IMG/VR virus record: IMGVR_UViG_3300011474_000007
Coordinates: 124,001 to 157,535 of that record
Direction: 5' to 3' (one strand)
DNA length: 33,535 nt
From: an uncultured virus (IMG/VR IMGVR_UViG_3300011474_000007)
Taxonomy: Duplodnaviria; Heunggongvirae; Uroviricota; Caudoviricetes
In this document: one piece after another, positions 2,783 to 32,909 of the stretch
Position numbering within the stretch: the first letter of the stretch is position 1
How the letters are laid out: every line of letters begins with the position of its first letter
Position numbers and translations under genes: made by a program
Notes under the pieces: generated by a model
The model's database searches: none
Told to the model about the DNA's origin: nothing
What the model saw: the letters and a program-made list of their open reading frames with translations, nothing else

Positions 2783-3493
2783 ATGGATATATCTTCTGAC
2801 TTTAATTTTTATAAAAATTTTAAAAAAGAAGTGATTCCTACAGTGTTAAATCATAAAACTGAGGCATCAAGTCGGTTTGTTAATTCTTATACTGCACTTT
2901 TTGATAAAAATGACAATACTGGGGTTCTTTTTAATGCAGCATATGGAGACAATGAAATAGAATTTAAAATAGATAAAAAATGTAAACTTTATTCATATGG
3001 TACTACATTTTCAGATGCAGGTGGTAATACAAACCAACCAATGGAAATACAAAAATTAAAAGACTCAGGTATATATGAAATTATAGGTTCTACAAATTCA
3101 ACTAATGGACATAATTGGGTTGTTTTGGTAGAAGAACTAGAACCAGGTACTTATAAATTTAAAGCAAAATATCCTAGATATCAAGGGTACAGGCAATGGT
3201 ATTTTGAAAGTATTAATACTAATAAATATCTTATAAAACAAAGCTCAAATTATTATACAATAAAATCCGAATTTTATAAAACTGGTAATTATGAACCTAT
3301 TTCAGAATTAGAAGGAAAAGAAATATTAACTGAAACTGATTTTAAAACTTATGGTATAGATGATTTAAATTTATCAACTGAAACTATCAATACCCAAGTT
3401 GTTAATGGGATTGATAAAGGTAATTTAGGTAGTGGAAAATTATTTGAATTTAATTTAAACAATGAGTTTAAGAATATAAATAATATAAATTAG
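2783..3493 (+). CDS. Beta-sandwich (discoidin/galactose-binding-like) head + KYLIKQ-module protein
   Basis: SD AAGGAG; LFD...GTYKFK...WYFE head similar to the next ORF; junction KYLIKQSSNYY. Confidence 0.45.
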   Translation: MDISSDFNFYKNFKKEVIPTVLNHKTEASSRFVNSYTALFDKNDNTGVLFNAAYGDNEIEFKIDKKCKLYSYGTTFSDAGGNTNQPMEIQKLKDSGIYEIIGSTNSTNGHNWVVLVEELEPGTYKFKAKYPRYQGYRQWYFESINTNKYLIKQSSNYYTIKSEFYKTGNYEPISELEGKEILTETDFKTYGIDDLNLSTETINTQVVNGIDKGNLGSGKLFEFNLNNEFKNINNIN

Positions 3494-3507
3494 AGAGGGA
3501 TGATATT

Positions 3508-4254
3508 ATGGCTGGAATTTCAAAACCTAATGTTGATAGTTTAGGTAAAGAAGCAAAATATACAGTTCTAAGTTGTAAAGATAGAGGTGGTTCAACTCCA
3601 TCAAATTGCGGCTTATTTGATGGTACTACTAATGGAGCATGGGATAGTTCAAAAATTTTTTATTGGCAAGAATCACCTCATTACCTAGAAATAGAAATAT
3701 TATCTTATAGGGTTAATATATGGAGAAGCGGAAATAATTATGGACATCATTCAGAATTAACAATAGAAAAATGGGATGGAGAAAAATATATTGATGTAAC
3801 TAAGATATATCCTCAGGTATTAACATCAATAACAAATTTAGAATGGGAAAAAACAATTTGCAATTTACCAAAAGGCAAATATAAATTTATTCGTAATAAT
3901 GGATATAGATTAGATGCAGAGTGGTATATAGAAGAGATTAAAAGTATTAAATATTTAATTCAGGATAAAAACAATATTTTATACACACTAAATGGAGTTA
4001 ACTTGGTACAAGCTCCATCACAAATATTAGATGAAAATAACTTAATAGATAATGGACTTACAGATACTGATCTAATAACTAAAGATTTATTATTAAGTAA
4101 ATTTGAAAACTTAGAAGGAATTAAATTACTTGTATATACAGATGATTTAGAAAAAAAAGAATGTGAAATGATTTATAATTGTGAGCCTTTTAGACCAATA
4201 GATAAGTTAAAGAAAAATAGTGATATTTGTAATATATTATTTAAGGAAGTGTAG
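3508..4254 (+). CDS. Beta-sandwich head + KYLIQ-module protein, paralog of previous gene
   Basis: LFDG...GKYKF...EWYIE head; junction KYLIQDKNNILY. Confidence 0.45.
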   Translation: MAGISKPNVDSLGKEAKYTVLSCKDRGGSTPSNCGLFDGTTNGAWDSSKIFYWQESPHYLEIEILSYRVNIWRSGNNYGHHSELTIEKWDGEKYIDVTKIYPQVLTSITNLEWEKTICNLPKGKYKFIRNNGYRLDAEWYIEEIKSIKYLIQDKNNILYTLNGVNLVQAPSQILDENNLIDNGLTDTDLITKDLLLSKFENLEGIKLLVYTDDLEKKECEMIYNCEPFRPIDKLKKNSDICNILFKEV

Positions 4255-4267
4255 GAGGTGATACAAG

Positions 4268-5203
4268 ATGAAAGAAACAATAATGTGGAACTCAAATGAC
4301 AAAGATTCAAGGATATTGTTAGATAAAAAAAATTTGAAGGCAAGTACAGATTATGGCTATATAATTGGTGTAAGAGCTAATATAGGAAGAACTTCAGGGA
4401 AATGGTATTGGGAAATTAAGATAAATAATAATACTGGATATCGTCATGTAGGAATTGCAAACTTAGATATGGCTCTTAGTACAGGAACAGGATTTCCCTT
4501 ATCAACTTCTTGGAGAGCATACAGAGGCAATAATGGATATAGCTTAGGAGGTGAAACTAATAATAGTAGTTACGGAGATACTTTTACAGGTGGAGATATA
4601 ATAGGAATAGCCTTGGATTTGGAATTAGGTAAATTAGAGTTTTTTAAAAATGGTGTAAATCAAGGAGTTTCAACAAATACAGTAAATGAAATGGGAGAAG
4701 TATATCCTGTATTTACTGGGGCAGATTTTTCTTGCAATGCTAATTTTGGACTAACTGAATTTGATTTAGCAATATATAATCCTAATATGTGGATGGAACT
4801 AGTAAGACAAGGTTATAAACCATATGATTTAGAAAATGCTAATTGGTTTAAAACTAAAAAATATTTAATAAAACAAAATAGTAATTACTATTCAATAAGC
4901 AATAATTATATAGATTTAGGAATTATAAATAATGATGAAGAGTTAAAGACTATAATAGATGAACATGGTTATAATGATTTATCCATACTCACTAAAGAAT
5001 TAAATACTAAAAAAATACCTACAAAGCTAGAAAATGATTATTACAAATCTTTTGATATTAATTTAAATGACATAAAAGATAGTATAAATCTTATAGAAGA
5101 TGATGATAAAAAATATATTGAATATGTTTGTGATAATTATAAAATATCAGATAAAATCAAGAAAATTAATAATGCTAAATTTGAAGTGTTAATGAAAGAA
5201 TAA
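4268..5203 (+). CDS. SPRY (B30.2) domain protein with KYLIKQ module
   Basis: SGKWYWEIKI, GDIIGIALDLELGKLEFFKNG, VYPVF, ANFG are SPRY signatures; SD AGGAGGTG. Confidence 0.8.
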   Translation: MKETIMWNSNDKDSRILLDKKNLKASTDYGYIIGVRANIGRTSGKWYWEIKINNNTGYRHVGIANLDMALSTGTGFPLSTSWRAYRGNNGYSLGGETNNSSYGDTFTGGDIIGIALDLELGKLEFFKNGVNQGVSTNTVNEMGEVYPVFTGADFSCNANFGLTEFDLAIYNPNMWMELVRQGYKPYDLENANWFKTKKYLIKQNSNYYSISNNYIDLGIINNDEELKTIIDEHGYNDLSILTKELNTKKIPTKLENDYYKSFDINLNDIKDSINLIEDDDKKYIEYVCDNYKISDKIKKINNAKFEVLMKE

Positions 5204-5267
5204 TGAGGAGAATGATATAAAATATTCATTTTAAATAAAATAATTTTAAAATATAATATAGAAAGGA

Positions 5268-6206
5268 ATGATTCTTGTGGGAGCTTTTAAACCAGCTTGG
5301 GATGTTGAGTATGATTGTAGTGTATTGCCTAATGTAGCAACATCGCCTTGGAGTATAAGTGGTGATATAAATTTAATGCATATTATAGATAGAATGTTAT
5401 ATATAAATGATAATTCTACAACTTCTCCCAGTGCCTTGGCAATGAACAATATAATAAGTAGTGATAAAATAACTACATTTGAGTGTGATATAAAAATTAT
5501 AAGTGCTAGTAATTTTCTTTCTTTGCAAATGCAAATCAATGATGACCAAAAAGGAATAGATTTAGGATTAGAATCCAATAAAATAAACATTTTTGACAAT
5601 AGTGCTTATCCATTTCGGATTATAAAATCTATAAATGTAGATTTAACAAATTTTAATAAGATAAAGCTTATTAAATATGGACAAACAAAATTTCAAATTT
5701 ATATAAATGATAAATTAATTGAGGAGAATAATTATTTTTCTAATATAAGAGATTCGAATAGTTTATATATAGGTGCTGGTAGTACACCGAATACTGGAAG
5801 TTGCTATATAAAAAATATAAGATATTGTTTAGATGGAATACCAATTTACTATCCCAATTCTTATTTAATAAATCAAAATAATAATTACTACTCAATTAAT
5901 TCAAATTTTCTTAATCTCGGACAACCTATAGATAATAATCAATTAGAGAATTGGTATAACAAATATAGTTCAGATGATGTAAATATAATAACTCAAAATT
6001 TGCATAATAAAGAATTTCCTATGACTAAAGCTGAAAATGGAATATGGAAAACTGATTTTGAATTAGATATGAATGATGTTACAGATAATATTGACTTGGT
6101 TGATATAAATGAGAACAACAAATCAATTAAATATGATTGTAATGATTATAGAATACTAGATTTATGTGATGATGAATTTGATATAAGAATGTTTAAAGAA
6201 AAATAG
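5268..6206 (+). CDS. ConA/LamG-like beta-sandwich head + YLINQ-module protein (start may be GTG 5277)
   Basis: FQIYINDKLI, LYIGAG, CYIKNIRY are LamG-like strands; junction SYLINQNNNYY. Confidence 0.5.
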   Translation: MILVGAFKPAWDVEYDCSVLPNVATSPWSISGDINLMHIIDRMLYINDNSTTSPSALAMNNIISSDKITTFECDIKIISASNFLSLQMQINDDQKGIDLGLESNKINIFDNSAYPFRIIKSINVDLTNFNKIKLIKYGQTKFQIYINDKLIEENNYFSNIRDSNSLYIGAGSTPNTGSCYIKNIRYCLDGIPIYYPNSYLINQNNNYYSINSNFLNLGQPIDNNQLENWYNKYSSDDVNIITQNLHNKEFPMTKAENGIWKTDFELDMNDVTDNIDLVDINENNKSIKYDCNDYRILDLCDDEFDIRMFKEK

Positions 6207-6562: not shown

Positions 6563-6615
6563 AGTATCAAGGCTTGTACATGTGTATAAGTCATTAAATA
6601 CTTAGGGTGATATTT

Positions 6616-7434
6616 ATGTATTATCAATTAAATGATTTTAAAAAACATTTATTAAAAAATAAAAAAAGTGAAAAAACTATAGAAGTATACATAAGAGATA
6701 TTAAACACTTTTTATCTTATTTTAAAAACAAACAGTTAAAAGATATTACAAATGATGATATAGACAAATATAAAATATTCATAATTAAGGAATTAGAAAT
6801 GGATGTAAAAACACTGAATAAAAAATTAGTAGCCATTAATCAGTATTTAAAATTTAATGGTGTTGCGGTAGATATAAAACAAGAAAAAGTACAGAGTCAG
6901 AATTTCTTAGATGATATATTCTCCTCTTCTGATTTAGAAAGAATTTTAAGGGCTATTGATAAAAAAAATGATTTAAGAGCTAAAGCAATAATTATGACAT
7001 TGCGTCTAACTGGGATGAGAGTTAGTGAAATGTTACAGTTAACAAAATATGATATTGATAAAGATACCTTAACCATATGTGGTAAAGGTAAAAAATATCG
7101 AAACGTTTTTATATCAGAAAAATTAAGATTAATATGGCGACAATATATGACAGTTAGAATTGATAAAAGTGAAATGCTTTTTACAGGTCAAAAAGGAGCT
7201 ATTACAAGACAAACAGTCGATAAAATTATAAAATATTATACTGGACAAGCAAAAGTAAAAAAATCAAAAGGACATGCACATAATCTAAGGCATAAATTTT
7301 GTAAAGATTTAGTGGATAAGGATGTTCCATTAGATTCTATTGCTGATATTGTGGGCCATGAAAATATTAATACTACGCGTATTTATACTCGTAAAACAAA
7401 AAAAGAATTACTAGATATAATTAATGATATCTAA
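6616..7434 (+). CDS. XerC/D-like tyrosine recombinase
   Basis: Catalytic TGMRVSE, GKGKK, HNLRH, GH...TTRIY; SAM-like N-terminus; ATG 6616 follows SD AGGGTGA (track starts at GTG 6607). Confidence 0.92.
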   Translation: MYYQLNDFKKHLLKNKKSEKTIEVYIRDIKHFLSYFKNKQLKDITNDDIDKYKIFIIKELEMDVKTLNKKLVAINQYLKFNGVAVDIKQEKVQSQNFLDDIFSSSDLERILRAIDKKNDLRAKAIIMTLRLTGMRVSEMLQLTKYDIDKDTLTICGKGKKYRNVFISEKLRLIWRQYMTVRIDKSEMLFTGQKGAITRQTVDKIIKYYTGQAKVKKSKGHAHNLRHKFCKDLVDKDVPLDSIADIVGHENINTTRIYTRKTKKELLDIINDI

Positions 7435-7460
7435 AATTTAATATAAAACTTAATGATTTT

Positions 7461-7485
7461 GAGTAGGTATTGCCTACTCTTTTTT
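7461..7485 (+). terminator. Intrinsic terminator after the recombinase
   Basis: GAGTAGG-TATTG-CCTACTC followed by a T run. Confidence 0.8.
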
Positions 7486-7513
7486 ATTTTGTATTTTAAA
7501 GAGGAGGTATTTT

Positions 7514-8155
7514 ATGCACGGTGAAATATTCACTTATGATGATATGGATAAATTCATAGCCAATGGAGAGGCAAAAATATTAAAAAAATCACAAAGAGTA
7601 GGTGGAAATAATCATTATAGATATTGGGTCAAATATAAAGGGGAAGAATATTTGATTTGTAATCAATGTAGTAAGTATTATCATATTGATTTATTCACAA
7701 GCTCAAAATATGGTTTTGCCAATAAACAACCTTATTGTAAGCAATGCAGAAGTAAAATGCTAAGAAAAGATTATAATAACAATTTTTCTACACATATGTA
7801 TTTAAGATATAAAAGACTAGAACAGACATCAAAACAATATAATATTCCTTATTTATCTTATAATGAATTTATTACATTTGCAAAAACTGTTAAAGAACCA
7901 ATATTTGAATTAACACTAGAAGGCGCTTTTTATAAAAATATGTCTAATGAGTTTGAAATCGAGCATTCACATCCTATCTCAAAAGGAGGAAACAGCTTGT
8001 TAAATAATTTAACTCTTATGCATAAATCATTTAATAGATTTAAAGGTACTATGACATTAGAAGATACGCTTTATTTTGCAAAATTAATTGTAAAACATGA
8101 AGATAAAATAAGAAAGAGTTATTATAATAAACAAATTCAATTAAATATAAAATAA
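7514..8155 (+). CDS. Zinc-finger HNH endonuclease
   Basis: CNQC...CKQC; EIEHSHPISKGG...NNL...FNRFKG HNH motif; SD GAGGAGG. Confidence 0.8.
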   Translation: MHGEIFTYDDMDKFIANGEAKILKKSQRVGGNNHYRYWVKYKGEEYLICNQCSKYYHIDLFTSSKYGFANKQPYCKQCRSKMLRKDYNNNFSTHMYLRYKRLEQTSKQYNIPYLSYNEFITFAKTVKEPIFELTLEGAFYKNMSNEFEIEHSHPISKGGNSLLNNLTLMHKSFNRFKGTMTLEDTLYFAKLIVKHEDKIRKSYYNKQIQLNIK

Positions 8156-8191
8156 TTTAATAATCTATTTAAAAGAAAAGTGGTGATTAAA

Positions 8192-8374
8192 ATGAAATAT
8201 TACTTGTGTTTTTCATGGAGACAAAAGGAGTTTTTAAAGAAAAATGGATTTAAATATGAATTTAAATCTAGACATATTGGAAACGGAAAAGTTTTTTACT
8301 TTTATTTTTGGAGCTACCAATTAGATTTATGTTTAAGGGAGTATAGTGAGATTAAAAGGAGTGTTTTGGAATGA
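8192..8374 (+). CDS. Small phage hypothetical protein (DUF5659-like)
   Basis: SD GGTGA before ATG 8192 (track starts 8180); FLKKNGFKY...H..NGKVFY pattern. Confidence 0.55.
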   Translation: MKYYLCFSWRQKEFLKKNGFKYEFKSRHIGNGKVFYFYFWSYQLDLCLREYSEIKRSVLE

Positions 8375-8466
8375 AAGTTAAAAAGTTTTAAAGGAAAAGA
8401 TAAATTTAATATAAAATAATTTCAAATATACATATAATTTCATACTAAACAAAAGAAGGTGAAGTA

Positions 8467-8691
8467 ATGGATAATGGAAAAACTAAAAAGAATACTAACA
8501 TATTTAATAATAACACCTTACCCTCTCAACATATAACTAAAACACAAATGATACAAATATTATATAAAGATTTACAAAACACACATACAGAATTTCATAA
8601 CTCACATACATTTGATTTCTCTAAAGGATTCATAAAAGGTAAGGAAGATATAATTAGGAAAGTTGAATTATTATTACAAATTTTAGACTAA
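8467..8691 (+). CDS. Hypothetical protein
   Basis: SD GAAGGTGA; last + strand gene before the strand switch. Confidence 0.6.
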   Translation: MDNGKTKKNTNIFNNNTLPSQHITKTQMIQILYKDLQNTHTEFHNSHTFDFSKGFIKGKEDIIRKVELLLQILD

Positions 8692-8828
8692 AATGAAATA
8701 ATTCTTAAAACATCTATTTTAGCTCTTACTTTACCATTCATATATTTTGCCCTACTCCAGAATAAACTTTCTACTACCTATCTATAATTATTGCTTACGA
8801 TATGATATTCATTTAATAAAACAATCTT

Positions 8829-8878
8829 AACCTAGTATTGTGTGGTACGCTTATTCGTACCACACTTAAGCAAGGTCT
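8829..8878 (-). repeat. Hairpin repeat copy A (candidate ncRNA or recombination site)
   Basis: GTGTGGTACG-6nt-CGTACCACAC core; shares ordered blocks with 14036-14090; 8 nt after the NTPase stop. Confidence 0.6.
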
Positions 8879-8886
8879 ATTATTTC

Positions 8887-11085
8887 TTATTTAATAACCC
8901 ATCCTATTTTTTTTAAGTCAGATTCTAACCACTCAAATACAAGATTAGTAATAGGGTTATAACCAAATATCTCCAAAACCCCTTCTCCACTTGAAAAATG
9001 AATCCACTCACTTTTTTCTCGACGTTTTACTCTTAATTCTCTTCTAATTTGAGAGTATTCTTCTAAAGTTGCTTTTTCTCTATCTAAAATATCAACTAAT
9101 TTAAAATTTACATATGAACTTTCACCTTTAGGAAGAATTTCGTAATACCACTCCATTGATGGTCCTCCGCAATATGTATTTTCCCTACTAATATGTATAT
9201 CTCCATTAAATTTTACAGGCAATAGATTATATAGTGATAGATTCTCTTTAATTAGTGGAAACCATTCTTCCACTACTCTTAAATATTCCTTAAATGCATT
9301 ATCATAAATAAAAATAGTTTTTTCGAGAATTCTTTGATCTGAATATGAGTCCCATATCCATCCACCACTTTCTCTACAAGAGATATCATGTTTTGGCCAA
9401 GGCGCACTTATAAATGTCTGCCCCTTATCAATCAATTTATCTATTTCACTAAAATAATACTTTATGTTAATTAATATATTATTAACATTCAAATTAGTTG
9501 CATATGAATATTTTCTGTATTCCTCAATTTCAGATATATCTATTATATCATCAAATAAACTACCTTTTTCAGTCAATATACAACTTACCCTCCATATATA
9601 CTCATCTAGCAAAATCCCATCTTGTAATAATAATGGTTTCTGCTTAACAATTTCTTTTAGATTTTTACTAAGATATTCTAATGTATCTATCCATGGCCAT
9701 ATTGATTGTGCGACTGGAACATGAGATCTAATGTTTCCGCCCCAAAATAACAAGTCTTTACCAGTAAACGTTTTAATATCTTCATTATAACTTTTTTCAT
9801 TCCATGCTACTGATATTTCTATTCCATCTACATCTACACCTAGATCTGCAATTTTACTATACCTAAATGGAGCTATTACATAAGCCAAATTTTCTAATCC
9901 TTTAATCCATTTTCTCATACATTCCTGTAACATTTTTCCACATTCATTTGCAGTTGGTAAATCACTTTGTCTCGTAGTTTTTATTCCATCTCGTATAATA
10001 ATAGAAGCAACTCCAGGATATTTACTTACAATTTTTCCAAAAATATCTTTTGATTCATTATAAGTTAACTTTCCAAACAATAATGATAACGGATATCTCC
10101 ATTTTATTATTTGCTCTTCTGACTTAATAATTTCATCAATATTCTTATATTTAAGTCTTACCCCTTCTGCTGAAAGCCATTGAGGTATTATTGGAAGTGG
10201 GAAATATAAATACTCACTATTATCATTATAGATAAGTCCTGATTTTAATAAATCATCTATATCAAAATCACTTCCTAGCTCACTAAAATGTATCTTTCCA
10301 AGTTTTTTATCTATAAAAATAATTGATAATCTAATTATTTGATCGTATATTTTTTCTTTTTGTAGAGATAGTTTTGCAATTGATCTGTTAACTAAATAAT
10401 CTATCATCCTATTTCTATCAAAAATAAAATTGTTACAATTTTCTTTAATAGATAAAGCAAATAAAATACAAAAAAATGGTCTTTCTATAGCATCCTTAAT
10501 ATCTTTATCTAATCTAAATCCTATTGATGAAACATATTCCTTCCCAGATATACACTCAATTATTTCAACTATCTCATCGTTTTTTAGAACAGGTAAATAT
10601 TTAATATTATGATTATTAATCAATGACATAGGTCTAGTTGTTAGCATAAAATAGCAATTCTCCCACAATTCCTCTAAAAACATTACCTCATTAATAATTT
10701 TATCTATTAGTTCATAATCAAGTTCATCTAATCCATCAATAAATATAATATATTTATTGTCATTGTCAAAAAAATAATTCTTTTCTATCTTCTCTTTTAA
10801 ACTACCTATAAAATTATCTTCTAAATATATTGGAAATCTATCATCCATATCATCTAAATATGCTTTGGCATATTTCTGAAATAGAATATCTACTGCATAT
10901 GATTTTCCAACTCCAAACTCTCCACATAAAATAATTAATCTTGATTCGTTATTACTTATAATATAATCAAATCTATCTTTTTTTAAATCCTTTTCAATTA
11001 TTTCAACAGCTGATTTCCTATCTAATCCATTAGTTCTAAATCTCGAAATACATTTTGCATATACCTCTTCTAATTTACTTTTTAG
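8887..11085 (-). CDS. NACHT-like STAND NTPase frame with no start codon of its own (continuation of the SEFIR ORF)
   Basis: Frame stays open 79 codons upstream of the track's Met 10848 and contains Walker A GEFGVGKS (10900-10923); Walker B YIIFIDGLDE; LTTRP; RPFF equivalent of GxP. Confidence 0.85.
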   Translation of the reverse strand, partial: LKSKLEEVYAKCISRFRTNGLDRKSAVEIIEKDLKKDRFDYIISNNESRLIILCGEFGVGKSYAVDILFQKYAKAYLDDMDDRFPIYLEDNFIGSLKEKIEKNYFFDNDNKYIIFIDGLDELDYELIDKIINEVMFLEELWENCYFMLTTRPMSLINNHNIKYLPVLKNDEIVEIIECISGKEYVSSIGFRLDKDIKDAIERPFFCILFALSIKENCNNFIFDRNRMIDYLVNRSIAKLSLQKEKIYDQIIRLSIIFIDKKLGKIHFSELGSDFDIDDLLKSGLIYNDNSEYLYFPLPIIPQWLSAEGVRLKYKNIDEIIKSEEQIIKWRYPLSLLFGKLTYNESKDIFGKIVSKYPGVASIIIRDGIKTTRQSDLPTANECGKMLQECMRKWIKGLENLAYVIAPFRYSKIADLGVDVDGIEISVAWNEKSYNEDIKTFTGKDLLFWGGNIRSHVPVAQSIWPWIDTLEYLSKNLKEIVKQKPLLLQDGILLDEYIWRVSCILTEKGSLFDDIIDISEIEEYRKYSYATNLNVNNILINIKYYFSEIDKLIDKGQTFISAPWPKHDISCRESGGWIWDSYSDQRILEKTIFIYDNAFKEYLRVVEEWFPLIKENLSLYNLLPVKFNGDIHISRENTYCGGPSMEWYYEILPKGESSYVNFKLVDILDREKATLEEYSQIRRELRVKRREKSEWIHFSSGEGVLEIFGYNPITNLVFEWLESDLKKIGWVIK

Positions 11086-11621
11086 TTTTTTTTTAATTCA
11101 ATATCATTTCCAAATTTAATACTTTTTAATAAATCCTCATTATTACCATCCAAAGAAATTATATTACCCAACTGTGGTCTCTGTATACGTGGCTGTTTAG
11201 TAATATATCTATATAGCTTTTCAAACTCTCCACTTTGATATAATTTATAATGTGTATAAGGCTGCAATGCTGATGGAATTGACCCATTATCTGTAAAAAA
11301 TATAGGCAATACTTTTTTATTATATTCGCCTTCATATAATATTTGTGTTATATATTTCCCCTCAAATTTTGCGCCAAGCCCCTTCCCTATCTGCTCCTTA
11401 TTTTCAAATCTATTTTTATAAATTTCCGTACAAACGCATAATATATAATCTGATTCTAATATATTATCTAACATATATTGCGCCCATCCTTGTTCAGGAT
11501 TCGTGGTATATTGATCTATTTCAGTTTGAACACCAAGATCTATTAATTTATCAGCAAGAATCTTAACCTTCTCTTCTAATTCCCGTGAATCATGGCTATA
11601 GCTAATAAAAACTTTAGGCAC
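11082..11621 (-). CDS. SEFIR/TIR domain protein; fuses to the NTPase by a -1 shift
   Basis: KVFISYSHDS, GW..YM, GKGLGAKFE, VLPIFF; GTG 11621 preceded by SD GGGGAG; ends ELKKN* over an A9 run. Confidence 0.88.
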   Translation of the reverse strand: MPKVFISYSHDSRELEEKVKILADKLIDLGVQTEIDQYTTNPEQGWAQYMLDNILESDYILCVCTEIYKNRFENKEQIGKGLGAKFEGKYITQILYEGEYNKKVLPIFFTDNGSIPSALQPYTHYKLYQSGEFEKLYRYITKQPRIQRPQLGNIISLDGNNEDLLKSIKFGNDIELKKN

Positions 11622-11732
11622 ATTAATCTCCCCCATATCTATAAGATCACATAACATTTTTTCTCATTATTACTTATCATATATTATAACATATAGTCTT
11701 TCTCAATACATTATATGGATAGCCACTATTAC

Positions 11733-11781
11733 AACCTATTCTTTTATTAAGATTTATCTTAATCTTAATAAGTATAAGCCT
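11733..11781 (-). terminator. Long hairpin after the TPR gene
   Basis: TTATTAAGATT/AATCTTAATAA core extended by G-U pairs on the minus strand; no U tract. Confidence 0.45.
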
Positions 11782-11804
11782 CTAAATTCTCCTAAATATT
11801 TAGA

Positions 11805-13804
11805 TTACATCTTATCAATTATTTGTATTCTATTCTTCCTAAATGTTATTTGGCAAATTTCTTCTGGAGAACGTAAAACAATCGCAGCCTCATTAAACAT
11901 TAATTCACTTTGTAGTTTGCTCCTAAAACCGTGGAAGCCTTCTGATGTGCTTGGAATCCATTCATCAATAATATAATTTCCTATTTGAATAATTGCATTT
12001 AGACTATTTAGCATTTTTATTATCGTCACTGTTATATTCTTATCATTAACAATATATTCTTCAAATTTATCCCATTTATGATTCAAATGTAAAACATCTT
12101 CTAACAATAATTCATTTTTATTTTTAATATAATTATCTTGATTATCATAAATTTTAAATAATGTTGGTAAACTAGCTTCTAAATCTAATTCATCACAATC
12201 TTTATTCATTACAAATTCAGCTAACCATCGATTTATAGGAGATATATACAATCCAATTCCTGATCTAGAATGAATTTTGTATTGAGTCTTTATAATATTT
12301 TTATTGTTCATATTTACCTCTATATAATCTTTATTTCTTATAAGAATTAATATATTAGTATATTCATACCCTATATCTATTACTGGTATTTTTTCTCCAT
12401 CACTAATAGGCTTATCTAAATCAAAATTAATAAATCTATCAATCCACCTAGCTAAATATATATTATTTGTATCGCCAGTATTATAATAACTCATAGCAAT
12501 TTCTAATAAAACTTTGCTATTTAAGTAATCTTCACTTAACTCCATATACATCTCTAAATTTTTAATAGCTTTTTTAAATTGACCAAAGTATCTTAAAACT
12601 TTTCCTTTTTCTAAAAATGCCAAAGCAAATTTTTTATTATAACTTAAAGCTTTATCCATATAATCAATACACTTTTTTGAATATGGATACATCATACCTA
12701 ATTCAAAATAAATTACTTCCTTATGCTGATTTAAATCCAGAGACTTTTCTAAGTATATTATACCTTTCTCGTTATTTCCTTTATTCTTATAACATTTAGC
12801 TAGTAAAAAATATATTTCGAGCAAGTTTTCCCAATTAGATATTTTCTCCAAATTTTCAATTGCTTCATCATATCTATGTAAGCATTCAAAACTTTTCCCT
12901 AATAATAACCTGTCAAAATCGCTATCTTTTTTATCTATTTTTACGATTGATATGTAATTCTATATATTTCATCTATATTTTTTAATCCCAAACATCTTAA
13001 ATCTAATATGTGATTCCAAGCCTCAACATACATTTTATTTTCTATTTCATATTTTACAATTTGTAAATCCATAGATATACGTGGCTGTTCTAATATGAGT
13101 TGTTCTAAACTTTGAATTATATATAAAATATCTGTATCTCTTATATCTTCACAATAATTAGATGATACTCTGCTATTTCGATGATGTTGAATTATATCCA
13201 ATATATCTTTCTTTGTTAAAAATCCTCTTTTTTCTCTTAAAAATAAGGATATTTTTGTTTGGAGTTCAGATAAAATACCAATAGTATTAACAAATAAATG
13301 TCTTTTCTCTGCCCACTCTAAAATAGAATATTTAGCTAAATCTACACTGCATATTTTATCGATAGAGTCAAATTGTACTTTTTCAATTTTATCGAAGTCA
13401 ATATTATGACTATTGCATACAGCTTTTATTTCTTTTAAAAATTCTTCTTTCATATTTTCACGTATACTAACAGCATTTTTATATTTTAATAATTTTGAAT
13501 GGAGATTCCTAAACCCATCATCAAACCCATTTCCAATAAAGACTCTTCCTTCAATGCATTCATATTTTCCTAATAATTCTCGTACAAATTTTATAGTAAA
13601 TAAATTATTCTTAACTTGTATACGTAATTCATTGTTATCATCAAATAGTATAGTAAAATCATCTAATGATTCAAAAGTAATAGCTTTAAATTTATCTTTA
13701 TCTAAGTATCTAAAAATATATACTATACTAGTACAATCTTGTTTCGATATTCCAGCACTATTAATTGCACCACCATCTTGTGTTCTTGAAAAGTAGCACT
13801 CCAT
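11805..13804 (-). pseudogene. Frameshifted PD-(D/E)xK nuclease (Cap4/DUF4297-like) - TPR fusion; track ORFs 12941-13846 and 11805-12851
   Basis: N-term DGGA...G...Q, E..DDF, IQVK nuclease motif; SD GAGGAG before ATG 13804; TPR frame is open up to ~12959 with TPR-like text (LLLGKSFECLHRYDEAIENL) and no SD/start. Confidence 0.7.
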
Positions 13805-14035
13805 TAAAAACTTCTCCTCTGTATATTTTAATCTAATTTCAAACATTGTCTAAATAAATCAATTTCTTTTCTTTACTATAATATAATTCTTCACCATTCA
13901 CATCTTCCTAATAATTTACTTTTTAATTCAACTTTATATCTTTGTATAAAATTATACCATACTCTCTTTAATTAAAAGACGGTATTTTCACTTATAAAAA
14001 TAGCCTTAACCAAGTAATATGAATAGCTAAAGACT

Positions 14036-14090
14036 AAGAACCTCATTTACTTATGGTACAGTTATCCGTAACTACTCTAAATAAGGTCTT
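14036..14090 (-). repeat. Hairpin repeat copy B (candidate ncRNA or recombination site)
   Basis: AAGACCTTATTTA...TACGG-ATAA-CTGTA...TAAATGAGGTTCTT on the minus strand with G-U pairs; related to 8829-8878. Confidence 0.6.
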
Positions 14091-14173
14091 TCTATTCCAT
14101 TCTTATTCTATATAATTAAAATATTATTTTAATTGATATCAATCTACTAATAATTTATTTTTATCATGTAATA

Positions 14174-16108
14174 TCACTTAAGAATTCCTTCATCTTCAGC
14201 TAAACAAAACTCCTCATTTATTTTTATAATAATTAAAATTAAAATTCGTAAAAAAATATAATAATCTTGTTCATGAATCCATGTATCTCTAGGTTGTGTT
14301 CCATGAATATATTTATTTCTTAAATCTAACCCATTACTAAATTCAGATTTATTCAAAAGATAATTGAAATAATTTTGTTCTGGCTTAGATAAAAATGAAC
14401 TTGTACATTCTAATATCTTCTTTGCTTCCAGTTCATTAATACTTTTACTGAATTCTTTTACGTGATAGTTAGAAATTACATCATTATAATAAAGTTCTTT
14501 TAATAGCCAAATTTTTTTCTTACTGTTTTTTAATATATTTTTTCTATCCTCATATAAGTATCCCTTTTCAATCAACCAATTAACTGCATGAAATTGATAT
14601 TCTTCGAAATCTTTTTTCTGAACCTTTTCTTTTTCAATTAAAATATAAAAAGCCCTATAATGACTATCTATGCCTTGGATATAATTAAGGTGAGATTGAT
14701 CAGAAAATAAGTAATTACTTGCTATCTTATACTCATCACCAATTGGATAAATATACTTTTTTTTCAATAAGCTCGGAATATCTTTTACACACATATGCTC
14801 AGATGATAATTGTAATAATTCATGATTAATTTCTCTATCCTCAACAAACAATTTAAATTGCTTTAATATGCTATCAATTTCAGAAGCTATTGTTCGGCAT
14901 TTTTCAAGATAAGTAGAATTTTCAGAAGGTAAATTTAAATAAAATCCTTCTATTCCAAATTCAGATTTTACATACTCATAAAAAAACCATTCTAGAACTT
15001 CTTCAAATCTAATATCATTTTTTTTAAGTTCATTATAATATCCCATTGTCTGTAACATTGCTAGACTTTGTATTTGTTGAAATGCGGTTCCTTTAATATA
15101 TTCCTTTTTGCTCTTAACACCCATAACTCTCTCAAATATCCCCATAGTGTTAACTTTATGTACATGTTGAAATCTAAATTGAAGATCCGTAAATTCAAAT
15201 AAATAAATAAAATTATTTAATATTGTAGGATAATCCCTATTTTCTTTAATCCATTGTGAACTATACGATGCACATAAATTCCTGTCTACCATTTCAATTT
15301 TTTTTTCTATCTCTTGATTATCTAAAAAGCGAACCTCAACATTGTATTGAAAACTGTATCCATCTTTCAAATCTTTTTTCCGTTCTTCTTCGTATTTTCT
15401 TTTTGCTTTCAGTTTTGTTCTATCTGATATGTATAAATCACTTGAATTTTGAAATTCAAATATAAGTTTAAGATAATTAGGATTTGCTCGTCCACATTCT
15501 ATATATCTAACTATTATTCCCTCCTTATCATCTAATGATAATGTTTTGGGGAAATGATACATTTTCCTACTAATATCCTTAGAACTAATATATTTATCTG
15601 CTAAAATCTCAGCACTTCTTTCATAGTTTAATAGATACTGGCTAATTTCTATATCATAATATCTAACTATTCCTCTACAAGATAAAATATCATACAATTT
15701 TAATCGCTCATGCGATAAGAGCCTTGCAAAAAATGCACCTGAAATGTTCAAATAAATCTTATAGTAATCAAACAATTTCCAAAAGTTTTCTAAGTACTCT
15801 ATATTAACCTCATTTAATATATCTTTAATATTGGATTCTTTAACATTAGAAAAATACTTTCCAATATGTTTTGAAAATTTATTTACTGTATATAAGTATA
15901 TCTTCCTTTTTTCTTTTGACCAAATGGTTAAGTACATATCATTTTGAAAAAAGAGCTTTATATTATAAAATTCAATTATCTTATTAATATTTTCATATAT
16001 TAAATTATCATCAAAATCTTTAATCACTTTTTCTGCCTTCACCAAATTATGGGGACTACTTAAATCAGTAACTGAATAAAACTTTACCCACGCCTGTTCC
16101 ATTGACAT
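14174..16108 (-). CDS. Large protein with a C-terminal HEPN-like motif (putative defence RNase)
   Basis: GLDLRNKYIHG = RxxxxH followed by a hydrophobic helix; SD GAAGGTG before ATG 16108. Confidence 0.6.
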   Translation of the reverse strand: MSMEQAWVKFYSVTDLSSPHNLVKAEKVIKDFDDNLIYENINKIIEFYNIKLFFQNDMYLTIWSKEKRKIYLYTVNKFSKHIGKYFSNVKESNIKDILNEVNIEYLENFWKLFDYYKIYLNISGAFFARLLSHERLKLYDILSCRGIVRYYDIEISQYLLNYERSAEILADKYISSKDISRKMYHFPKTLSLDDKEGIIVRYIECGRANPNYLKLIFEFQNSSDLYISDRTKLKAKRKYEEERKKDLKDGYSFQYNVEVRFLDNQEIEKKIEMVDRNLCASYSSQWIKENRDYPTILNNFIYLFEFTDLQFRFQHVHKVNTMGIFERVMGVKSKKEYIKGTAFQQIQSLAMLQTMGYYNELKKNDIRFEEVLEWFFYEYVKSEFGIEGFYLNLPSENSTYLEKCRTIASEIDSILKQFKLFVEDREINHELLQLSSEHMCVKDIPSLLKKKYIYPIGDEYKIASNYLFSDQSHLNYIQGIDSHYRAFYILIEKEKVQKKDFEEYQFHAVNWLIEKGYLYEDRKNILKNSKKKIWLLKELYYNDVISNYHVKEFSKSINELEAKKILECTSSFLSKPEQNYFNYLLNKSEFSNGLDLRNKYIHGTQPRDTWIHEQDYYIFLRILILIIIKINEEFCLAEDEGILK

Positions 16109-16322
16109 ATTAACACCTTCCAACTTTATCTTCTACAACCATTATTGTATTTTCATTATATAACATATAAAATTTAAATACTATCTCATCTAGTTTAAAT
16201 AATAATGCAGTAAGTAAAATTTACCCATTTACTTACCTATATATTCAGTTGTATCTGTCATTCACTTTAATATCATATTATAATAAATTTTAATTAGATT
16301 TTTTTCAGTACCACTTATCTCT

Positions 16323-16360
16323 ATATTACAATATCTAAATTTAATATATCTATCCCAACA
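16323..16360 (+). repeat. 38-bp direct repeat copy 1
   Basis: 32/38 identical to 17988-18025. Confidence 0.6.
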
Positions 16361-16370
16361 TTTCTCAATA

Positions 16371-16403
16371 TAAAAGAAGATGATACCTATTAAAGCATCA
16401 TCT
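16371..16403 (-). terminator. Intrinsic terminator after the small ORF
   Basis: AGATGATGC-8nt-GTATCATCT then TCTTTT on the minus strand. Confidence 0.7.
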
Positions 16404-16456
16404 ATTAGCTTTCGTTATATTATTAATCGAATTGAATAGAATCTTATACCTCCATA

Positions 16457-16621
16457 TTATTTATTAATAATCTTTTTTGCTTCTCTTTGAAGTACTAAAT
16501 TAGATAAAGTAACATAAAAATCTTGTTCTTCTTTTGATTTAGCATCTTTAAATAATTTCATCAACTCATCATAAGAATAGGTTAAAAATATATCATATAA
16601 ATTTCCTTTTTTACTATCCAC
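16457..16621 (-). CDS. 54-aa small helical protein
   Basis: SD GGGAAGGA, GTG start, MDSKKGNLYDIFLTYSYDELMKLFKDAKSKEEQDFYVTLSNLVLQREAKKIINK*; below track cutoff. Confidence 0.7.
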   Translation of the reverse strand: MDSKKGNLYDIFLTYSYDELMKLFKDAKSKEEQDFYVTLSNLVLQREAKKIINK

Positions 16622-16871
16622 TCTAGATTTCCTTCCCTTGTCTTTGGAAAACTATATATTGATTATACACTATTATTTAGGGATTTTACCTATTTTTATT
16701 ATGTATAACGGTAAAGATTTATTAGACAAAGTTTTTAACAGTACGCTCCAATATAACTACTTTTACTAACCCATAACCTTTTCACTAAAAAATATTATTA
16801 ATTATAATATATTAACATCTTTCTAAATAAAACACATAAATTAAACTTATATTTAAGATGATCTTGACTAG

Positions 16872-16911
16872 GAAACACATAGACTTGAATTTAAACAACT
16901 CTATGTGCGTT
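16872..16911 (-). terminator. Hairpin after the TIR gene
   Basis: CACATAGACTTG / CAACTCTATGTG inverted repeat with one mismatch. Confidence 0.5.
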
Positions 16912-16933
16912 CACTTTATAATAACCTAATCTA

Positions 16934-17887
16934 CTATTGGTACCAGAGAGTACATCTATGACCATATTGTATTTCATTTAATAATTTGTACTCTTTTTCT
17001 ACATCAATATGCATCCCCAATTCTTTCATTTTAATATATTCTTTATACTCATTCTCTTTAATTCTATTTTTACACCACATATAAAACTTTTTATGTTCGA
17101 TACTCTCAATTGTATTCTTTTCTATGCTAGCTATATCTATTACAGATAGTTTTACACTTTCATTATCTTCAATTTGCTTTAAACTAAAATCTATATTAAG
17201 CCCATGTATACCTTTAGTTACATTCGCACTTTCTAATATATATTTTCTTTCTCCAAATGTATCTTCTGGATAAATACTAATTTCTATATAAGTACATTTA
17301 TCTAATTCATTTAAAAACTGCTCTAACCCTGCTACTTCATCACCCAGCTTTATTCCATTATCATATAATTTTTTACTTATTTCCTCACAAATGTTATTTA
17401 TATTTGGATTATTCATATCTGAGACTATTTGCATAAATTCTCCAATAGTACGCTTTATATCCCCTATTTTTTTAAGTTCCTGATTTAAAGTCAAACTACT
17501 TTCATTATCCTTTATTGTATAAATTTCTTCTAAAAGTTTATTATATTTTTCATTCCAATACTTGATATATTTAGTTCTATCTAATGAATCATATATAGAA
17601 GTATCTTCCAAAACTACTGTAAGGATTCTACTTTCATAATTTTCATCTTTCATTACTTCTAATACTTCGTACATGCAATTTACGGACTTTAAGTAATTAT
17701 CACTTACCACTAAGATTGCATAATTGCTTTTTCTTATCCTTTTCATAAATTCTTTTATACTTTTCCAAGGCTTAATTTCTCTCCTATCTCTGTCAAAAAT
17801 AATTTGTCTACTTTTAAAATAATTATCAATTTGATTTACTATATTATCATCCTTGTGACAATATGATATAAAAACCTTATTCTCCAT
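16934..17887 (-). CDS. TIR domain protein with an unknown C-terminal domain
   Basis: KVFISYCHKD, ILVVSDNYLKSVNCMYE with the catalytic Glu; SD AAGGAG. Confidence 0.88.
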   Translation of the reverse strand: MENKVFISYCHKDDNIVNQIDNYFKSRQIIFDRDRREIKPWKSIKEFMKRIRKSNYAILVVSDNYLKSVNCMYEVLEVMKDENYESRILTVVLEDTSIYDSLDRTKYIKYWNEKYNKLLEEIYTIKDNESSLTLNQELKKIGDIKRTIGEFMQIVSDMNNPNINNICEEISKKLYDNGIKLGDEVAGLEQFLNELDKCTYIEISIYPEDTFGERKYILESANVTKGIHGLNIDFSLKQIEDNESVKLSVIDIASIEKNTIESIEHKKFYMWCKNRIKENEYKEYIKMKELGMHIDVEKEYKLLNEIQYGHRCTLWYQ

Positions 17888-30922: not shown

Positions 30923-31324
30923 TTATCCTTGATTTTGTATATATTTTTCAATTGTTTCTTTCGATATTTGCCCTATGCTACAAGCAAAGTATCCATCTCC
31001 ACAAAATGTCTTTTCGTTCCAAAATTGTTTTTTTAGATATATATAATTCTTGTTTTGTCGCCATATTCTATAAGTAGACATTTGTTTAAATAATCTTACT
31101 AAATCTAAAATAGATTTTGTTGGTGGGTATTGAACTAATATATGAATATGGTCTTTATCAACTTCCATTTCTATAATATTCAGGTCTTTTTCTTTAGAAA
31201 TGTCATATAATATTTTCTTAATTTCATTACCATATTTTATTAATAATTTCTTTCTATACTTAACTGAAAATATTAAATGACACATTAATAAATGTTTTGA
31301 ATGATTTTGACTTATATAATCCAC
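30923..31324 (-). CDS. tnpA: IS200/IS605 HUH (Y1) transposase
   Basis: HLIFSVKYRK, DHIH, YIQNQ; GTG 31324 (track starts 31333). Confidence 0.93.
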   Translation of the reverse strand: MDYISQNHSKHLLMCHLIFSVKYRKKLLIKYGNEIKKILYDISKEKDLNIIEMEVDKDHIHILVQYPPTKSILDLVRLFKQMSTYRIWRQNKNYIYLKKQFWNEKTFCGDGYFACSIGQISKETIEKYIQNQG

Positions 31325-31370
31325 TATACCCACACTATTCCTTTATTAAATTTATAGGGCTTAATTAAAT

Positions 31371-32651
31371 CTATTCATTTAATCTTACATATTTCCCTTT
31401 ATTTTGAGTTCCTCTAACACTATAAACCTTTCCTTCGTATTTAATTAAGTCATTGGGCTGATAAAAATATTTACCCTTTCTTATTCTTCTTTGACCTTTA
31501 GATACTTTTTGTCCTCTGTATTTCTTTAAATTTTCATCATTTAAACTCTTATTTCTAGTTCTTCTGCCACAGTTTAATTCTCCACCACTAACCTTTCCTC
31601 CTGTTCTTATATCGATATATTTAGAGTCATAAAACATCTCTAAACTTCTATTATTTCTTCTTGATTGCTTAACTTCATATATTTCATTATTTCTTGATTG
31701 ATTAATTCCTTTAGCTATACAAAAAGCATCATTGTAGTGTGATTTCTCTATATTGTTCTGTATTCTATGATTTTTAGTTATATATCCATAAGTAAAATTT
31801 ATATTATTATATTTTTCTTTTAGCTCATTTACTAAATACCATCTAATCATACTCATAAAAGTAGCATCTTTAAATCCTCTGACTTTCTTTTCTTCTTGAC
31901 ACCAATCCCATAAAAATTTACCTTTCTTATGATTAGGTGAAGTATGACATTTTGAACATAAAGTTATTAAGTTATTGGCATTATCTGTTCCACCTAAACT
32001 TTTATATTTAATATGATGAACTTCTAATATTTTTTCTTTAGATTTATTCTTACAATTAGGATTTTGACATTTGTGCAAATCTCTATGAAGAATATACTCA
32101 CGCAAATTCCAAAAACCTATCATTTCACCTTGTTGATATTTTTCCCCTTGTATATCTGGATTCTTAATTTTTTTAATATCAAAATTAGCTATTTCTACAA
32201 CACATTTAGTTATTGGTAATATTGAATATAAATAATGAATAAATTTAATATGACTATCTAGTTTGTGTTGTAAACTAGGAGCTAACCAACCCTTTTGTTT
32301 TGATTTTGTTCTATTGTTCCATTTAGGTTTTCTATATCTCAATCTACTTCTTCTTTGTTTTCTATACATTTGTTTTTCTAATAATCTTTCCTTCATACCT
32401 TGAAGAAGTTTTAATTCACCAACTAACAATTCTCTTTTGTCTGTTATAGCACTAAAACCTATGTTATTATATCCTGAATCTATTCCTAATGTTATTTTTT
32501 GAGTATATTCAGTTTCAGTTTTGTAAGTTAATTGAATAGTAAAAGGTTTTGATTCTTCGACTTTTGCTTTATTATTTTTTAATAATATTCTAGCTTTAGC
32601 ATTAGATGTAGGCATAAGAGCTTTTCCATCAATCCCTATTACATAAACCAT
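31371..32651 (-). CDS. iscB: RNA-guided endonuclease IscB, with a frameshift near the C-terminus
   Basis: ALMPT (PLMP), RuvC-I LGIDSG, bridge helix RKQRRSRLRYR, RuvC-II VVE, HNH EVHHI...NL..LC..CH, RuvC-III HYNDA. Confidence 0.92.
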   Translation of the reverse strand: MVYVIGIDGKALMPTSNAKARILLKNNKAKVEESKPFTIQLTYKTETEYTQKITLGIDSGYNNIGFSAITDKRELLVGELKLLQGMKERLLEKQMYRKQRRSRLRYRKPKWNNRTKSKQKGWLAPSLQHKLDSHIKFIHYLYSILPITKCVVEIANFDIKKIKNPDIQGEKYQQGEMIGFWNLREYILHRDLHKCQNPNCKNKSKEKILEVHHIKYKSLGGTDNANNLITLCSKCHTSPNHKKGKFLWDWCQEEKKVRGFKDATFMSMIRWYLVNELKEKYNNINFTYGYITKNHRIQNNIEKSHYNDAFCIAKGINQSRNNEIYEVKQSRRNNRSLEMFYDSKYIDIRTGGKVSGGELNCGRRTRNKSLNDENLKKYRGQKVSKGQRRIRKGKYFYQPNDLIKYEGKVYSVRGTQNKGKYVRLNE

Positions 32652-32664
32652 AAAAATCAATCCT

Positions 32665-32909
32665 TCCAGATAATTTAACCTCACCTTACGGTGGTAAGTT
32701 CTCTTTGCTAATGTTATATAAGGTTTTATATCTTTAATACACTTGTCCTGCCATTAGAAATGTTTAATATTAAAGCGTAGTGTTCAAGACTAGAGAAGTA
32801 TCTTGAAGTACCTATATATTCTCATATAACGTAGTCATTTAAGACTTAAGCTAATCAACAAACTTGTTACTTAACAAGCCACTACCCTTTAGGGTAGTTG
32901 GCAGTTGAC
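32665..32909 (-). ncRNA. omegaRNA scaffold (HEARO-like)
   Basis: GTCAAC...GTTGATTAG...CTAAG-like...GACTACGTT...ATAACATT...ACCACCGTAAGGTG blocks directly upstream of iscB. Confidence 0.85.

Follow-up and report, generated by a model that had tools for sequence, protein, structure and literature searches.

Here we describe a candidate defence gene that is divided between two reading frames in IMGVR_UViG_3300011474_000007, a record of 157,535 bp that is classified as viral. Its final 33,535 nucleotides (33.5 kb; positions 124,001 to 157,535 of the record) were analysed and are called the window throughout. On the minus strand of the window, an open reading frame (ORF) for a SEFIR/TIR effector ends one codon past a run of nine adenines (A9), and a second ORF, open in the -1 frame from just ahead of that run, encodes a STAND/NACHT-like NTPase followed by a long C-terminal region. 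The best explanation is that both ORFs together make up a single NLR-like defence gene of the bSEFIR type, consisting of SEFIR effector, STAND NTPase and C-terminal region, although for this reading taken as a whole we judge the probabilities to be evenly poised. The best explanation for the tract itself is that selection maintains it, out of frame, in the linker between the domains. An earlier, sequence-only reading of this DNA had proposed that the two halves are joined by slippage at the run; overall, that reading is partly supported by the analysis reported here.

Anatomy of the split gene

The coordinates of all features discussed are collected in Table 1. The ORF listing begins the SEFIR ORF at an ATG at 11657, which would give a product of 191 amino acids; because the SEFIR homologues begin MPKVF, we take the GTG at 11621 to be the real start, and the free product then has 179 amino acids, the size that had been proposed from sequence. 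A Shine-Dalgarno-like GGGGGAG, putatively functional, lies 6 nucleotides (nt) ahead of this GTG. Reread on the minus strand, the junction is ...GAT ATT GAA TTA AAA AAA AAC TAA, exactly as it had been described, and together with the C that follows it the run makes up the heptamer A_AAA_AAC. In the -1 frame the same stretch reads TGA, ATT, AAA AAA AAA and CTA. The TGA shuts this frame upstream of the run, and from there the frame is open through the Walker A motif, for 736 codons in all, to a stop at 8887-8889; over the NTPase region, 77 and 116 stops per 736 codons interrupt the two alternative frames. The first 83 codons of the NTPase frame contain no start codon, and the first ATG, GTG or TTG to appear in it is an ATG at 10848, past the P-loop, so that the earlier statement that no start precedes the P-loop holds and a product initiated at this ATG would be without Walker A.

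Only along the 13 nt from 11097 to 11085 are both frames open, an arrangement that recurs in a homologous locus of genome G062 (L007). Since the jointly open stretch is so short, a change of frame must occur on or adjoining the A-run. Given one extra A, the predicted fusion comprises 176 + 3 + 732 = 911 amino acids, in agreement with the length of about 911 put forward from sequence.

The junction in other DNA loci

Four DNA loci were read across the junction: the window (viral record G000), L003 from C. cibarium, L007 from G062, and L004, a metagenome locus that encodes the protein P0007. The first three are split and have A9. L003 carries an identical GAA TTA A9 C TAA, L007 an identical junction at which TGA again shuts the -1 frame, and the 18-nt junction, with a TGA just 5' of it in the -1 frame, is thus the same in three of three split DNA loci. 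In L004 the run has ten adenines (A10; CTA AAA AAA AAA CTA) and the gene is in frame. Its fused product P0007 (910 amino acids) reads ...ELKKKLITMSDEVYARSISRF across the junction and is colinear with the window; within it, ...FGNDKELKKKLITMSDEVYARSISRFKTNG matches the window's ...FGNDIELKK(N-stop) and then (IKKK)LKSKLEEVYAKCISRFRTNG, exactly colinear. The in-frame A10 homologue supports the earlier contention that a single ancestral gene underlies the two ORFs, and the recurrence of the A9 split in three loci supports that of a conserved slippery tract at the domain boundary.

Contig searches contributed one locus among genome contigs and one among metagenome contigs. No homologous DNA locus was found among the viral contigs and GenBank phages searched, and a plasmid search gave only homologues of less than 60% identity. 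At the family level, 11 of 401 genomes (384 scored, 17 unscored) had matches, two of these 11 with the split pair; at the genus level around G062 (17 genomes, 13 scored), the sole match was G062 itself.

Selection on both halves and avoidance of long runs

Selection was estimated pairwise among the three split loci as the ratio of non-synonymous to synonymous substitution rates (dN/dS; pairwise dS 0.30-0.94; one-sided Fisher p). The ratio is 0.13-0.28 in SEFIR (p <1e-7), 0.33-0.39 in the first 79 downstream codons, which are without a start codon (p 0.005-0.015), and 0.27-0.30 in the remaining 652 NTPase codons (p <1e-7). As these values are purifying among lineages that are all split, both halves, the start-less stretch at the tract included, have been kept as coding sequence, and because split loci keep both halves under selection, neither decay nor assembly error can hold as a general explanation. 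A half that is selected and yet has no start can be entered only by a shift to -1 inside the almost all-A stretch of 13 nt, in keeping with the earlier claim that the downstream half depends on such a shift.

The record is poor in runs of this kind. As measured on the 157.5-kb record alone rather than on a bacterial host, A/T runs of at least nine number 4 versus 27.7 expected from base composition (25.5% GC), and runs of at least ten number 0 versus 10.4. In its 106 long ORFs, 81% of lysines are encoded by AAA, and none of 28 KKK triplets is all-AAA versus 14.9 expected. Because the record otherwise breaks such runs, we regard the A9 at the junction as more than chance. According to Baranov et al. 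(2005; PMC1088944), selection against slippage sets in at nine adenines in many bacterial genomes, and where a genome avoids 9A, slippage on such a run is of consequence. The same account takes it as a comparative sign of use when non-identical homologues keep both the ORF organisation and the 9A. Under-representation of 9A/9T in coding DNA is found in the record; the A9 is a run of at least nine A/T in an ORF overlap where slippage lengthens the product; and it is conserved in all three split DNA loci over the range of dS given above. As judged from these loci, the gene bears the comparative sign of used slippage.

Two of the four runs of at least nine in the whole record fall in the defence island described below. 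The second, at 15298-15306 on the minus strand, lies in the ORF at 14174-16123 (PDC-S56), is read in frame as GAA AAA AAA ATT, and both alternative frames there stop within one to three codons.

Protein relatives, tract length and phylogeny

A search with the 736-amino-acid frame returned two in-frame SEFIR-NTPase fusions at 65-66% identity, P0007 and P0009 (909 amino acids), and five close short forms that begin at an internal Met, namely P0004, P0005 and P0008 (664 amino acids each), P0006 (679 amino acids, C. cibarium) and P0010 (638 amino acids), some of which start inside or past the P-loop. Distant fusions, at 21-32% identity, have the same NTPase and C-terminal module.

Sixteen SEFIR halves with a readable C-terminus were assembled from the SEFIR-half search and from cluster listings, the truncated P0137, P0138, P0141 and P0145 being left out. 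The end ELKKN-stop is found in 11 of the 16 (P0001, P0024, P0025, P0027, P0028, P0029, P0031, P0135, P0136, P0143 and P0146), which come from NCBI isolates (several Clostridium species by source name), JGI and Logan. With the three split A9 DNA loci, these ends make it plain that the diverged homologues are not uniformly in frame; homologues uniformly in frame were what the sequence-only reading had set beforehand as counting against it, and it survives that test. The remaining five (P0026, P0139, P0140, P0142 and P0144), all from Logan or ENA, end in ELKKTKN-stop, which is what a run of eight adenines (A8) would give with the L007 sequence 3' of the run; the A8 calls and most A9 calls are read from protein ends. 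ELKK is invariant in all 16 while the flanking residues vary. Two A8-type proteins are otherwise identical to A9-type ones (P0026 to P0135/P0136, and P0142 to P0025), and the other three are as near to an A9 sequence as to another A8.

Neither the 16 SEFIR halves nor the 12 NTPase-side cluster members of the split clade include an in-frame form, and the proteins in those clusters are only 111-724 amino acids long. Searched from the SEFIR side for longer proteins, the data gave only P0007, P0009, forms of 420-433 amino acids and fusions of 49-53% identity. One of these, P0163 (433 amino acids), has the look of a fusion cut short, its listed domains including NPHP3_N and nSTAND_NTPase5; for P0158, P0159 and P0160, NTPase Pfam domains are not shown.

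Because the tree of SEFIR halves was unresolved (0 starred branches), relationships were taken from the NTPase tree, which has 14 rows after removal of P0012-16, P0022 and P0023 as redundant or distant. There the split lineages, five in number, group together as a clade (98/97) whose sister is the fused pair (100/100). The basal position is taken by P0010, the SEFIR half of which, P0032, ends in KLKKKSKS-stop.

Separately, in a more distant group (53% identity), the stand-alone SEFIR protein P0033 (175 amino acids) ends ...NLKSDAEK-stop where the fused P0161 (886 amino acids) continues ...NLQSYTEKEIDKIKKTCIARF. This pair may represent a second, independent split at the same linker.

Alternative explanations

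The sequence-only reading had itself raised phase variation, under which the tract would gain or lose bases as the DNA is replicated, A10 (or A7) alleles would be ON and produce the fusion, A9 and A8 alleles would be OFF and produce SEFIR only, and populations would be mostly OFF since the receptor is costly. This is the foremost rival of the recoding that we prefer, and we consider it unlikely, although a part of the evidence speaks for it. Tract length does differ among relatives (A9 in three DNA loci, A10 in one, an inferred A8 in five proteins); for two of the inferred A8 proteins there is an A9 twin that differs nowhere else, the other three are interspersed among A9 sequences, and an unbroken run in a run-breaking genome fits selected mutability as well as it fits RNA slippage. 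The A8/A9 twins therefore lend the idea some support, but the in-frame alleles that it calls for in the split clade did not appear: despite recurring changes between A8 and A9, the ON allele is absent among the 16 SEFIR halves and the NTPase-side clusters, and the frame state tracks the tree instead of being scattered over it. The position of the tract also fits poorly, in that it lies in a linker 179 codons in and is followed by an immediate stop, so that the OFF state yields an intact domain. The inferred A8 ends, moreover, are all from Logan or ENA and may be assembly noise, whereas P0001, P0028, P0135, P0136 and P0143 (NCBI or JGI) and G062 are all A9. Phase variation and RNA slippage are not mutually exclusive.

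Three further explanations carry less weight. It is improbable, in our view, that free SEFIR and free STAND are two separate proteins, with the NTPase ORF made by reinitiation or from a non-canonical start (AUU at 11097). In each of the three A9 loci the -1 frame begins with such an AUU, the Val codon of P0151 (724 amino acids, Logan) is a GTG at which the gene caller began (MYAKCISRF...), and stand-alone SEFIR proteins of 168-175 amino acids are found in more distant relatives (P0033, P0034); on reading the three A9 loci, however, we saw no convincing Shine-Dalgarno sequence ahead of the AUU, the window has no ATG, GTG or TTG before Walker A and C. cibarium just a TTG in the P-loop strand, the NTPase frame of the inferred A8 alleles would open two codons before CTA and be without AUU, and the distant relatives are all single polypeptides with a fused effector. 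Decay, by which a frameshift at a hot spot would have killed the receptor and left a downstream pseudogene beside a SEFIR that at most still functions, can draw on the fact that homopolymers are indel hot spots, but it is strongly disfavoured and very improbable given 736 open codons in 25.5%-GC DNA whose off-frames carry 10-16% stops, dN/dS of 0.27-0.39 between all-split lineages at dS 0.3-0.5, and a junction kept the same in at least 11 non-identical sequences. We give least credence of all to a homopolymer miscall of a true A10 in this metagenome-derived record. Such runs are prone to miscalls, and the window was taken from an assembled virus record; among contigs of four sequencing runs (X1, X2, X3 and X5), only one of X1 (208 nt, depth 3.3) covers the A-run, with no difference, and it is maybe from the source sample itself. 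Against an artefact, A9 recurs in two further, independent genome assemblies (L003 and L007) and the same protein ends occur in NCBI, JGI, ENA and Logan sequences. Neither decay nor sequencing error, both named as alternatives in the sequence-only reading, is thus favoured by the data.

A possible route to two products

Under the recoding that we prefer, standard decoding would end one codon past the tract and release the free 179-amino-acid SEFIR, and the NTPase-sensor part would be translated only as the 911-amino-acid fusion, following a -1 change in the 13-nt overlap; the outcome would be much free SEFIR and little full-length receptor. That the full-length SEFIR-STAND product depends on slippage at the tract, and that the fusion is the minority product beside free SEFIR, is a proposition on which we are equally divided. 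The most likely route would be the addition of one A by RNA polymerase on the A9 run, and a lesser route would be ribosomal -1 shifting on A_AAA_AAC. This heptamer fits the X_XXY_YYZ slippery pattern and lies in the ORF overlap, as had been noted from the sequence. Because A_AAA_AAC is reported to shift far less readily than A_AAA_AAG in E. coli (review of Atkins et al., 2016), the polymerase is the likelier of the two to slip; and since a polymerase can add or drop bases, the inferred A8 alleles, if functional, would also suit polymerase slippage better. In the A10 sister clade the ratio of the products would be reversed, because loss of one A from the L004 run gives ELKKN and then TAA TAA. 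As a precedent, ribosome profiling in the Firmicute L. cremoris has been reported to place about 18% of translation past an A-rich out-of-frame site (PMC10986495).

RNA structure 3' of the run is not significant (z -1.21, -1.45 and -0.28), in agreement with the earlier observation that no stimulatory hairpin stands at canonical spacing, and the single shared hairpin, of 9 bp, begins about 17 nt past the heptamer, outside the 5-9 nt spacing of a stimulator. Structure 5' of the run is likewise not significant (z +0.83 to -1.28), and on reading the split loci we saw no conserved Shine-Dalgarno-like stimulator upstream. Rfam gave no match at the split-gene locus, and a promoter scan of this AT-rich DNA gave 32 hits versus 28.9 expected, with 0 terminators.

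A number of these and other observations weigh against slippage at the tract. Stimulatory RNA structure is missing from either side of it, and the heptamer is of the weakly shifting kind in E. coli (Atkins et al., 2016). The inferred A8 and A9 occur in otherwise identical proteins, so that A9 is not strictly fixed and fits a contingency tract, and an A8 allele would need another slip (one A lost or two gained). P0151 has a chance GTG 9-10 codons past the tract, where independent initiation is conceivable, though for that one lineage alone. The effective independent lineages are few, and the DNA loci read number four.

Free SEFIR could be an amplifier, a restraint or a by-product. We put forward tentatively, as something we rather doubt, that polymerase slippage sets the ratio of abundant free SEFIR to rare SEFIR-STAND, with tract length (8, 9 or 10) serving as a heritable dial and free SEFIR (NADase/adaptor) joining or restraining a SEFIR assembly nucleated by the activated receptor; bacteria and phages would then have their own counterpart, made by slippage, to the truncated TIR-only isoforms that plant TNL genes make by splicing. 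If the two-product gene is real, a dangerous, NAD+-depleting receptor would be kept at very low dose with its effector domain in excess.

What kind of gene is split

bSEFIR is described as a single-protein anti-phage system that depletes NAD+ via an N-terminal SEFIR domain (preprints of Millman et al., 2022, and Osterman et al., 2024), recognised by an N-terminal SEFIR match stronger than the TIR match (Millman et al., 2022). With Pfam, the effector half P0001 matches SEFIR (1.1e-13, 52.2 bits) more strongly than TIR_2 (1.4e-10, 42.2 bits), and in the fused homologue P0007 the two are near equal (TIR_2 9.8e-12, SEFIR 1.7e-11). The PADLOC bSEFIR model PDLC03957 matches P0001 at 7.6e-45, P0007 at 1.4e-45 (residues 2-366) and P0018 at 4.4e-35. 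As to a single polypeptide, P0007 and P0009 are each one, and the gene in the window occupies two frames. All 25 SEFIR domains that were aligned have D36, E76 and E87. If the effector acts as other bSEFIR proteins do, it would deplete NAD+ on triggering of the receptor.

The downstream half, P0002, carries the Walker A motif GEFGVGKS and a Walker-B-like IIFIDGLDE, the DGLDE of which we take to be a NACHT-type Walker B. Since curated NACHT and STAND models score under their cut-offs, we call the domain NACHT-like and not NACHT: P0002 reaches 17.5 bits with KAP_NTPase (cut-off 20) and 17.1 with NPHP3_N (cut-off 24.8), and its relatives 25.0 with NACHT (cut-off 26.7) and 18.1 with nSTAND5 (cut-off 34). 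An NCBIfam search of the NTPase part gave no match; the closest Atlas clusters are nSTAND4/NACHT (0.97-0.98), and one source labels the C. cibarium homologue 'NACHT domain-containing'. The C-terminal region, of about 450 amino acids, has no family match. In relatives the same NTPase and C-terminal module bears SEFIR, SMEK_N or DUF4062 heads, and a plasmid homologue of the module is annotated as an alpha/beta hydrolase. The gene thus has a tripartite layout with an exchangeable N-terminal effector, in which the C-terminal region would be the putative sensor, and about 10 residues of linker separate the tract from the start of the conserved NTPase module. NCBI lists the halves apart, as 'TIR domain-containing protein' and 'hypothetical protein'.

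Genomic setting and domain shuffling

Both Clostridium chromosomes and a large, phage-like record contain the split pair. The phage nature of the latter is taken from its classification and its PHROG matches; Pfam Terminase_6N, Phage_sheath_1 and Phage_portal were searched for in the record and not found. In the window the pair lies within a defence island (6607-17887; Table 1), flanked by genes of phage type, namely ThyX, guanylate kinase, Dam methylase, topoisomerase II subunits, thymidine kinase and dUTPase. The neighbours were considered as parts of the system and rejected: the flanks differ between the window (TPR protein), L003 (PDC-M62A/B and a PLD nuclease) and L004 (unrelated genes). 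Because of these differing neighbours, we take the gene pair to move on its own.

In a further set of proteins, L008 243-1550 (plus strand), P0154 and P0158-P0160, of which L008, P0154 and P0159 are from other Clostridium, this SEFIR head (69-76% identical) runs on in frame, again at that linker, into another C-terminus of about 250 amino acids without NTPase; these are 420-435 amino acids long, and one is from C. perfringens by source name. Between the window and G062, dS is 0.94 in SEFIR and 0.43 in the NTPase. From the alternative C-terminus and the unequal dS of the halves, the linker looks like a recombination joint at which domains are shuffled.

Two other parts of the window deserve mention. 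A HEARO RNA (Rfam RF02033, 133.5 bits) at 32694-32909 (minus strand) lies directly 5' of an RRXRR+HNH ORF at 31371-32684 (PHROG HNH endonuclease, 2.5e-157), with an IS200-like Y1 transposase at 30923-31333, and the stretch 30923-32909 (minus strand) looks like an IS200/IS605 element of the IscB/omega-RNA type. At 2783-6206 (plus strand), four ORFs in a row have in common a C-terminal region that matches phrog_10667, and one of them has a SPRY domain and a weak match to virion structural proteins; beside the integrase, they look like paralogous tail-fibre-like or receptor-binding genes.

Table 1. The split gene and the other genes of its defence island, by position in the window.
Feature	Coordinates	Strand	Remarks
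SEFIR/TIR effector ORF, 179 codons	11082-11621	-	GTG start 11621; TAA 11084-11082
Shine-Dalgarno-like GGGGGAG	11628-11634	-	putative function
A9 tract (T9 on plus strand), proposed slip site	11086-11094	-	with next C, heptamer A_AAA_AAC
13-nt frame-change stretch	11085-11097	-	between -1-frame TGA 11100-11098 and 0-frame TAA 11084-11082
STAND/NACHT-like NTPase and C-terminal region (putative sensor)	8887-11097	-	-1 frame, 736 codons stop to stop (P0002)
Walker A GEFGVGKS	10900-10923	-	read in sequence, P0002
First ATG/GTG/TTG of NTPase frame (ATG)	10846-10848	-	past P-loop
Integrase	6607-7434	+	
HNH/endonuclease VII-like gene	7514-8155	+	
TPR protein	11805-12851	-	
LmuA/Cap4-nuclease-like protein	12941-13846	-	
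PDC-S56 candidate defence gene	14174-16123	-	PADLOC 1.3e-231
TIR protein	16934-17887	-	

Comparison with known systems

The gene resembles bSEFIR in its N-terminal SEFIR domain, its match to the PADLOC model and its setting in defence islands, and differs from it in being spread over two frames and in a C-terminal part that consists of a STAND NTPase and an unmatched region (about 730 amino acids). With NLR-like STAND defence proteins (Avs, bNACHT) it shares the layout of effector, NTPase and sensor with swappable heads (SEFIR, SMEK_N, DUF4062/NIR and, by annotation, alpha/beta hydrolase), a likeness by sequence alone; it differs in that its NTPase is at most NACHT-like, the Pfam scores being below cut-off.

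As for the proposed recoding, the nearest parallel is tssM1 of C. rodentium, in which an early stop follows just after a poly-A run and RNA polymerase slippage is reported to give a short and a full-length product, both forms and their ratio being required, with the arrangement retained in another species (Gueguen et al., 2014; PMC4256274). That gene differs in having A11 and in encoding a type VI secretion membrane protein of Proteobacteria, whereas the gene described here has A9, would be an immune receptor of Clostridium and phage, and is known from its sequence. The OrfA/OrfAB arrangement of insertion sequences is alike in that the upstream ORF is an autonomous N-terminal protein and a -1 change on an A-run fuses the downstream catalytic part to it (PMC1088944; Atkins et al., 2016). 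Here, in contrast, no transposase is involved, the downstream part is a sensor NTPase, and the effector of the fusion is N-terminal.

Genes that yield two products by slippage are known among transposases, type III and type VI secretion genes, copA and dnaX, the slippage site of Thermus dnaX being an A9. For E. coli copA/CopA(Z), Meydan and colleagues are said to have described in 2017 a programmed -1 frameshift at a domain boundary that frees the N-terminal domain, with the 0 frame reportedly giving the long product and the shift the short one at a slippery site accompanied by RNA structure. The present gene would be the reverse, the 0 frame giving the short product and the shift the long one, and RNA structure was not found. 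In the plant TNL genes N and RPS4, a truncated TIR-bearing product beside the full receptor is reportedly needed for full resistance; there the isoforms come from alternative splicing, where slippage is proposed here. Phase-variable defence systems include the mod genes of type III restriction-modification and the G-tract of pglX in Pgl/BREX. These too have a homopolymer in a defence gene whose length differs between close relatives, but in the split clade none of 16 sequences is in frame, and the tract is at a domain boundary and not near the 5' end.

Our full-text literature search found no report of a slippage-dependent, two-product anti-phage immune receptor. Recoding by slippage and SEFIR/STAND defence are each known, and it is their combination at the effector linker that appears to be new. 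If it is real, STAND, TIR or SIR2 defence genes that are split at a homopolymer, and that are routinely called as pseudogenes or as unrelated genes, can be functional.

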